From the IMG/VR virus record IMGVR_UViG_2541047745_000010: a stretch of 44,068 nucleotides of DNA; one strand, 5' to 3'. Positions 42,119 to 43,335 of the stretch are shown here, piece after piece. The notes beneath the pieces are model-generated. The model was given only the letters and a program-made list of their open reading frames with translations. It was not told where the DNA came from and searched no databases. A program made the translations under genes and the position numbers. The DNA is from a virus (Duplodnaviria; Heunggongvirae; Uroviricota; Caudoviricetes). Positions within the stretch are counted from its first letter, which is position 1. Each line of letters begins with the position of its first letter.

Positions 42119-42406
42119 ATGGCAATGAATCTTGTGACACTCAAAACGTGGGGAAAACTCAGATATCCGGATAACCCACCATCAATATCAACGCTGAGAC
42201 GATGGGCAAGGAATGGAAACATTTATCCTGCACCTGAACTACACGGGAGGAGTTACAGGGTGGTTCCGGAAGCTTTCTATATCAACCCAAATAAGGTTGA
42301 TACCGATATAACACACCATCAGCCTAATGGGCGACAAGGGAGAGACAGTCCGTTACTGGAGAAGTTAAAACATGCAGCGGAAAAAATACGATCCCAATTT
42401 GCCTAA
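42119..42406 (+). CDS. xis: excisionase (lambda Xis-like)
   Basis: 95 aa; LVTLKTWGKLRYPDNPPSISTLRRWARNGNIYPAPELHGRSYRV resembles lambda Xis; overlaps the integrase start. Confidence 0.75.
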   Translation: MAMNLVTLKTWGKLRYPDNPPSISTLRRWARNGNIYPAPELHGRSYRVVPEAFYINPNKVDTDITHHQPNGRQGRDSPLLEKLKHAAEKIRSQFA

Positions 42407-43335
42407 AAACTTAACATATCGAAGGAGGGACAAAGCATATTACTGGCGCAACCCTCTGACGAAAGAAGAATTTACACTAGGTAAAATTTCAAGAAGAGAT
42501 GCGTTACAAAACGATTCTTATAAGGAGAAAAGTGTCCAGAAATACTTATAAAATTCGGGTAAATCAACTGGAGACAATAAAAGAAAAATTAGGAGGAGTT
42601 TTACTGACAGAAATAACCACTCGCCATATTGCCGAGTTTCTTGATTTGTGGATTGAAGGAGGGAAAAACACGATGGCAGGATCAATGCGTTCTGTGTTAT
42701 CTGATATGTTCCGCGAGGCCATTGTTGAAGGACGTATATCTCAAAATCCAGTAACGCCAACAAGAGCACCGAAAATAGTAGTTACAAGAGAACGGCTGAA
42801 ACTAAAGACATACAACTGCATCAGGGAGGCAGCAGATCAACTTCCGACATGGTTCCCATTAGCTATGGACTTAGCCCTTGTAACAGGACAACGTCGCGAA
42901 GACATAACAAATATGCGGTTCAGTGAGATTTATGATGATCGTCTCCACATCAGGCAAATTAAGACAGGAATGATGATTGCTATCCCCCTGTCACTCAGCC
43001 TTCCTGTCGCTGGTTTACGACTTGGTACAGTAGTTGAACAGTGCCGCATGGTAAGTAGGGGGGATTATCTAATCAGTGCCGGGATTAGAAAAAACAGCCC
43101 TGACGGCAGCATTCACCCGGACGGCCTGACAAAGAAATTTGTCGCAGCCAGAAAATTAACAGGTATCCAGTTCAGTGAAAACCCACCAACTTTTCACGAG
43201 ATCAGAAGCCTGGCTGGACGATTGTACAAAGAAACATGTGGGGAAGAATTTGCTCAACGTCTACTTGGCCACACATCGGAGAAGACAACAAAAATGTATC
43301 TTGATGAGAGAGAAAAAACGTACTTACTGCTCTGA
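42372..43335 (+). pseudogene. int: lambda-family tyrosine integrase, apparently frameshifted (N-terminal arm-binding domain and catalytic body in different frames)
   Basis: Frame A 42372..42551 encodes MQRKKYDPNLPKNLTYRRRDKAYYWRNPLTKEEFTLGKISRRD... then TAA; frame B opens at 42481 and runs to 43335 through the core-binding and catalytic domains (catalytic Tyr in TTKMYLDE). Confidence 0.55.

Follow-up and report, generated by a model that had tools for sequence, protein, structure and literature searches.

Can a temperate phage still leave the chromosome when its integrase gene is divided between two reading frames? The question is raised by one end of a 44,068-nucleotide stretch of DNA (the whole stretch analysed here, hereafter the window), in which an excisionase gene, xis, overlaps the start of an integrase gene, int, by 35 nt, and int itself stops after 59 codons and is continued in the +1 frame. 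A reading of the letters alone (the sequence-only reading) had reported that int is broken between its arm-binding domain and its catalytic body, and all of the coordinates that it gave for this break hold (Table 1). Comparison with other genomes leads us to conclude that, very probably, int of this Escherichia coli HVH 100 prophage carries a recent, strain-private 113-bp deletion with a frameshift, and that neither of the resulting products should be able to recombine attL with attR.

Reading frames of int and the missing 113 bp

The first frame runs from an ATG at 42372 to a TAA at 42549-42551 and encodes 59 aa, the final 15 of which (LQNDSYKEKSVQKYL) are out-of-frame read-through. Because it encodes a truncated domain, it matches Pfam Arm-DNA-bind_1 only weakly (18.9 bits, cut-off 22). 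From 42481, right after a TAG at 42478-80, the +1 frame is open up to a stop at 43333-35, and it matches both Phage_int_M (39.9 bits, cut-off 27) and Phage_integrase (60.7 bits). Its earliest ATG, at 42499, is created by the junction described below and would give a protein of 278 aa; the other candidate starts are a GTG at 42532, with TAAGGAG upstream at 42521-27, and an ATG at 42673, which are those picked by gene callers for versions of 267 aa (Logan) and 220 aa (NCBI), respectively. An exact-sequence look-up of the 278-aa ORF returned nothing because the gene callers chose these later starts, and the same look-up matched the 59-aa ORF to EQQ33510.1, 'hypothetical protein G761_03755', of E. 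coli HVH 100 (4-2850729). The homologue of xis in the otherwise identical prophage of E. coli AVS0790 is annotated as 'excisionase' (WP_001311878.1).

Table 1. Features of the integrase locus and of the two prophage ends, in window positions
Feature	Position	Strand	Description and source
int-distal att core region	1067..1100	.	Phage-borne copy of ryeB 3′ end
Candidate arm-type site, distal (P-like)	1229..1237	+	Exact AATTTCGRG, ~130 bp inside the other prophage end
xis, excisionase gene	42119..42406	+	Pfam Exc PF07825, E 6.5e-14; RefSeq homologue annotated from 42125
int fragment 1	42372..42551	+	44 native residues M1-A44, β-sheet part of arm-binding domain; 15 out-of-frame residues, TAA (ORF list, alignment to intact gene)
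Deletion junction	42501..42502	.	113 bp absent; single 113-column gap versus intact int of strains 300709 and AVS0790
int fragment 2	42502..43335	+	R82-L358, most of core-binding domain and entire catalytic domain, +1 frame (ORF list, Pfam)
Catalytic-residue span, all six intact	42892..43299	+	phmmer alignment to 5j0n/1z1b, codons read from sequence
R212	42892-94	+	lambda R212
K235	42961-63	+	lambda K235
H313	43195-97	+	lambda H308
R316	43204-06	+	lambda R311
H338	43270-72	+	lambda H333
Y347	43297-99	+	lambda Y342
Candidate arm-type (P′-like) sites	43402..43431	+	Three tandem AA(A/T)TTCG(A/G)G copies, 10-11-bp spacing, between int stop and att core
SraC/RyeA	43463-43607	+	Rfam, directly 3′ of int
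int-proximal att core region	43466..43500	.	Overlaps SdsR/RyeB 3′ terminator end; imperfect 35-bp repeat with 1067-1100
SdsR/RyeB	43467-43566	-	Rfam, directly 3′ of int

Alignment to the intact integrases of related prophages, which the sequence-only reading had proposed as a check, reveals the nature of the break. Pairwise, int and the intact allele differ by one gap of exactly 113 bases and by nothing else. The missing bases amount to 37 codons plus 2 nt (113 = 37 x 3 + 2), namely the final two of codon 44 followed by codons 45-81 (VAQAIEANHYIYKNYSPAALIEKLKGFDSFTMADWIE); codon 44 is restored as GCG across the junction, retaining Ala, and the 37 residues V45-E81 are lost. The earlier suggestion that one internal deletion, its length not a multiple of three, could account for both the frameshift and the missing residues is thereby borne out. 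Its estimate of about 35 missing residues came close, falling slightly short of the 37 residues plus 2 nt that are absent.

The same reading had also entertained an error or mutation of one base in the A-run at 42540-42542, and dropping one A there does formally fuse the two ORFs, with the join ...KEKSVQ-NTYKIRVNQ. However, the frame changes at 42501|42502, and from 42502 on the sequence equals that of the intact gene, A-run included; '...LQNDSYKEKSVQ' is an out-of-frame translation, and the proposed join was never part of a real protein. A homopolymer origin of the break is thus next to impossible.

The deletion removed unique, non-repetitive coding sequence. Its endpoints share a microhomology of only 1 bp, 'C', such that the junction could equally be written as 42502|42503, and this rules out a repeat-mediated deletion by slippage between direct repeats.

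Distribution of the two alleles and recent history of the prophage

The int region of the window (42100-43480) is present in 228 of 5,426 complete E. coli genomes by megablast, and among the matches listed each is split into two pieces that together span 1,494 bases for a query of 1,381. The gene with the 113 bp in place occurs in about 226 of the 5,426 genomes, and some complete E. coli genomes carry two copies of int. In strain 300709 it is annotated as one 1,077-bp gene for a 358-aa 'tyrosine-type recombinase/integrase', in AVS0790 it occupies NZ_CP124436.1 558587-559663, and the intact 358-aa protein (WP_001189091.1) is found on at least 1,000 contigs. The junction has a very different distribution. 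A 40-base query centred on it found no match in the 5,426 complete E. coli genomes or in the phage collection, with a control query of 40 bases from the left side matching 227 genomes; a 31-base junction query found none in metagenome contigs or GTDB species representatives. Exact look-up placed the 59-aa product in NCBI assembly GCA_000457405.1 (scaffold KE699702.1) and in a Logan contig of SRR958196 (33.9 kb), both of which agree with the window at each of the 4,697 bases of overlap, including the flank SNPs. Among all collections searched, the junction-bearing allele is confined to E. coli HVH 100.

A programmed frameshift or a conserved split gene was considered and rejected: in all of the related complete genomes examined, int is one 358-aa ORF that lacks the junction. 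Set against the intact orthologues, which are common in the population, the lesion disrupts the frame, as is expected of a pseudogene. By this comparison, int of HVH 100 is very probably an ordinary strain-private pseudogene and its two ORFs one gene; in annotation, 'hypothetical protein G761_03755' and the short integrase should become one integrase pseudogene.

An allele known from one strain only might instead be an artefact of assembly or sequencing, the strain truly having an intact integrase. The NCBI record is a draft assembly, and the Logan assembly of SRR958196, in which the junction recurs, may have been built from the same data, which makes a library-level artefact conceivable. Yet a clean loss of 113 bp from coding sequence of this kind is unlike a homopolymer slip, the separately built Logan contig passes through the junction, and the junction is reported in three samples. 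Because a second assembly pipeline reproduces the junction, an assembly artefact becomes less likely, and we give an artefact of any origin only a small chance of being correct.

A true deletion being the preferred explanation, its age can be approached through the surrounding sequence. Over its full length, the window has matches in E. coli AVS0790 and AVS0196, and the prophage lies between pphA and yebY. Compared base by base with AVS0790, the window shows 14 mismatches, which all fall in chromosomal flanking sequence (19-1018 and 43654-44061), those nearest to the prophage being at 1018 and 43654. The flanks thus diverge by about 1% (14 SNPs in about 1.5 kb), whereas the prophage itself (~1,070-43,490, ~42.4 kb) has 0 mismatches apart from the 113-bp gap. 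This contrast points to one phage that very recently entered E. coli of different backgrounds, and with the prophage identical and the flanks differing, the lesion would therefore also be recent. We infer that the same phage recently lysogenised different hosts and that the deletion then arose in the HVH 100 lineage; it would postdate integration because integration itself needs Int.

The prophage is a mosaic of about 42.4 kb that joins Rac-like early genes to a SEN34-like myovirus structural module. Its early half is Rac-like, and its structural half matches Escherichia phage genomes such as vB_EcoM-611R5 at 97.8% identity over 74% of its length. In the identical AVS0790 copy, the modules for head, tail, terminase, lysis, replication, immunity, recET and xis are annotated and all complete. 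The earlier description of the prophage as otherwise complete agrees with this: all modules are present as far as can be judged from the bases, and outside int the sequence is that of a copy whose int is intact.

Several other features of the prophage and its relatives were recorded. At the int-distal end, a pinE-type serine invertase gene lies beside two oppositely oriented tail-fibre-assembly genes (1398-3502), an arrangement suggestive of an invertible host-range switch. At the position of the large terminase (21499-23121, minus strand), a 540-aa protein that is hypothetical here and called TerL in relatives had no Pfam match; the adjacent small subunit strongly matches Terminase_2. Three small RNAs exceed the Rfam gathering thresholds: RalA (41836-42014, minus), sok (29178-29352, minus) and DicF (37088-37139, plus). 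RalA is the antitoxin of RalR, and sok that of hokD. A family of 39-nt direct repeats with the core CTCTCCTTTGATGCGAATG and 72-85% identity (30730-30768, 31224-31262 and 32154-32192) sits among small minus-strand genes, from a DUF551 fragment to an XF1762-family gene and hypothetical genes; its core, taken on the coding strand, has the form of a recurring Shine-Dalgarno and start module. Finally, PP818812.1, 'Actinobacillus phage vB_Apl-pPE4', carries an intact int that is 97.3% identical to that of the window and Rac-like recE/recT early genes of about 94% identity, and its host label looks odd for what is apparently an E. coli-type phage.

Attachment site in the ryeB/sdsR locus

The imperfect att repeat listed in Table 1 escaped a repeat finder set to a 14-nt seed and a minimum length of 20 nt, and was recovered by a scan with shorter words followed by alignment. 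The exact core common to both copies is ACGATTCCTGT. The prophage rebuilds the 3′ end of ryeB with two substitutions. Judged from these borders, integration took place in the 3′ end of ryeB/sdsR, within the ryeB/sdsR-ryeA small RNA locus. According to the account in PMC7380047, which refers to Balbontin et al. 2008, the Salmonella phage PhiW104 integrates into the last 23 bp of ryeB, and its integration is reported to alter ryeA and ryeB expression in Salmonella. As described, the site of PhiW104 is of the type seen here, comprising the last ~23 bp of ryeB, which lie inside ryeA as well; the host, Salmonella, is different.

Between int and the attachment core lies a set of short repeats. The 44 kb contain just three exact copies of AATTTCGRG, each beside a prophage end; two of them, together with a third that has one mismatch, form the tandem array at 43402-43431. 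In lambda attP, three sites form the P′ arm, about 50 bp from the core, and there is in addition a P arm (PMC9791396). The AATTTCGRG copies are likely to be arm-type Int-binding sites, arranged like those of lambda P′ and P.

Predicted loss of excision and comparison with known systems

The intact 358-aa protein aligns end to end with lambda Int in structures 5J0N, 1Z1B and 1Z1G (phmmer, E 1.4e-71), and for residues 44 to 213 its numbering is that of lambda Int. The isolated arm-binding domain of 1KJK comprises residues 8-59, and the core-binding and catalytic constructs 1P7D and 2OXO begin at residue 75. On this scale, the deleted span 45-81 takes in the arm-binding domain's C-terminal helix, all of the linker between the domains and the first 7 core-binding residues (75-81). 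Much of what characterizes a heterobivalent integrase is nonetheless encoded in the window: a catalytic domain with the R-K-H-R-H-Y residues, a core-binding domain upstream of it, an adjacent excisionase gene, and an att site with candidate arm-type repeats. What is broken is the union of a complete arm-DNA-binding domain with the catalytic body on one polypeptide, which is cut after residue 44 with the two parts in separate frames; the intact allele of other strains carries both on the same polypeptide.

Lambda-type integrases build the excisive intasome, with Xis and IHF, from a single polypeptide that must bind both arm and core sites. The first product of the HVH 100 gene would be a 59-aa stub with two thirds of the arm-binding domain, and the second an N-terminally truncated core-binding and catalytic fragment that starts at residue 82 or later. 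Neither should recombine attL with attR, because arm and core binding needs one polypeptide. Lambda Int has been dissected in much the same way: C65 and C75 alone give 0% recombination, as do C65 and N64 supplied as separate polypeptides, and N-terminal domains cut back to 56-58 residues fail to activate even a C-terminal partner that has been engineered (PMC9791396). Engineered C-terminal fragments with E174K show weak recombination of core sites, although C75 is inactive even with this substitution (PMC9791396). The two ORFs of the window roughly match the N-terminal arm-binding and C-terminal core-binding and catalytic pieces of these experiments, but the lambda N64, C65 and C75 pieces are longer: the natural ones end at 44 and start at 82 or later, and the lambda 57-64 peptide, which is needed for inter-domain communication, is entirely absent here. 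By this analogy, the prophage is probably excision-defective and locked in the chromosome. Upon induction it would stay there, yielding few or no infectious particles, and its annotation should flag it as probably unable to excise.

Could the split nevertheless be functional, either as a binary integrase or through an arm-less C-terminal fragment that keeps some excision from an internal start (ATG 42499, or GTG 42532 with its TAAGGAG)? All six catalytic residues are intact, and the position at which E174K lets lambda fragments weakly recombine core sites is occupied here by V; yet wild-type lambda C65 and C75 are without activity, E174K does not rescue C75, and the fragment here begins further downstream, at 82 or beyond. 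A binary enzyme would in turn have to draw on an N-terminal stub that ends at 44, when the N56-N58 pieces of lambda are already inactive. The good Shine-Dalgarno sequence and in-frame GTG, which one gene caller chose as its start, favour expression of a C-terminal fragment, but the arrangement is absent from the ~226 related genomes and hence is not a conserved design. On balance we regard a functional split as very improbable.

There is a slim chance of a further reading with two alternative forms: either the prophage is fully inducible without excising, and replicates and packages its DNA in situ, or the arm-less fragment from GTG 42532 retains a low level of unregulated core-site recombination. 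In the first case, the prophage would be a fixed platform that carries chromosomal DNA from the yebY-copD-holE or the pphA side into particles, like lateral transduction; in the second, the fragment would carry V at the position that is altered by E174K in lambda int-h. The window covers 44 kb of the genome, and another integrase with this specificity, encoded outside it, could also act in trans. The preferred reading, an excision-defective prophage, would make HVH 100 and AVS0790 a natural near-isogenic pair of int-minus and int-plus phages in which the effect of excision loss on induction, host killing and transduction could be followed.

The locus as a whole has its closest model in lambda. 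The intact allele shares the three-domain layout and catalytic residues of lambda Int, and here, as in lambda, xis overlaps the start of int, the gene lies beside the att core, and a triple repeat occupies the position of the P′ arm. It differs from lambda in its attachment site, the 3′ end of ryeB/sdsR. Lambda attB lies between gal and bio. A second difference is specific to the window, where the gene is interrupted by the 113-bp deletion of residues 45-81.

That prophages can become 'grounded' through inactivation of int has already been described (PMC6379469). Deletion within the integrase gene is an ordinary, well-known route of prophage decay, and the present case changes no concept. Grounded or cryptic E. 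coli prophages such as Qin, with its mutated intQ, are likewise immobilised by integrase mutation and stay at their att site (PMC6379469). The known examples, however, are old, heavily decayed and common to many strains, whereas the HVH 100 prophage has 0 SNPs in 42 kb and its lesion occurs in one strain. Set beside them, it is, to judge from its sequence, at the very first step of decay, and would capture the onset of grounding: a single int lesion, with all other bases identical to those of a mobile copy.
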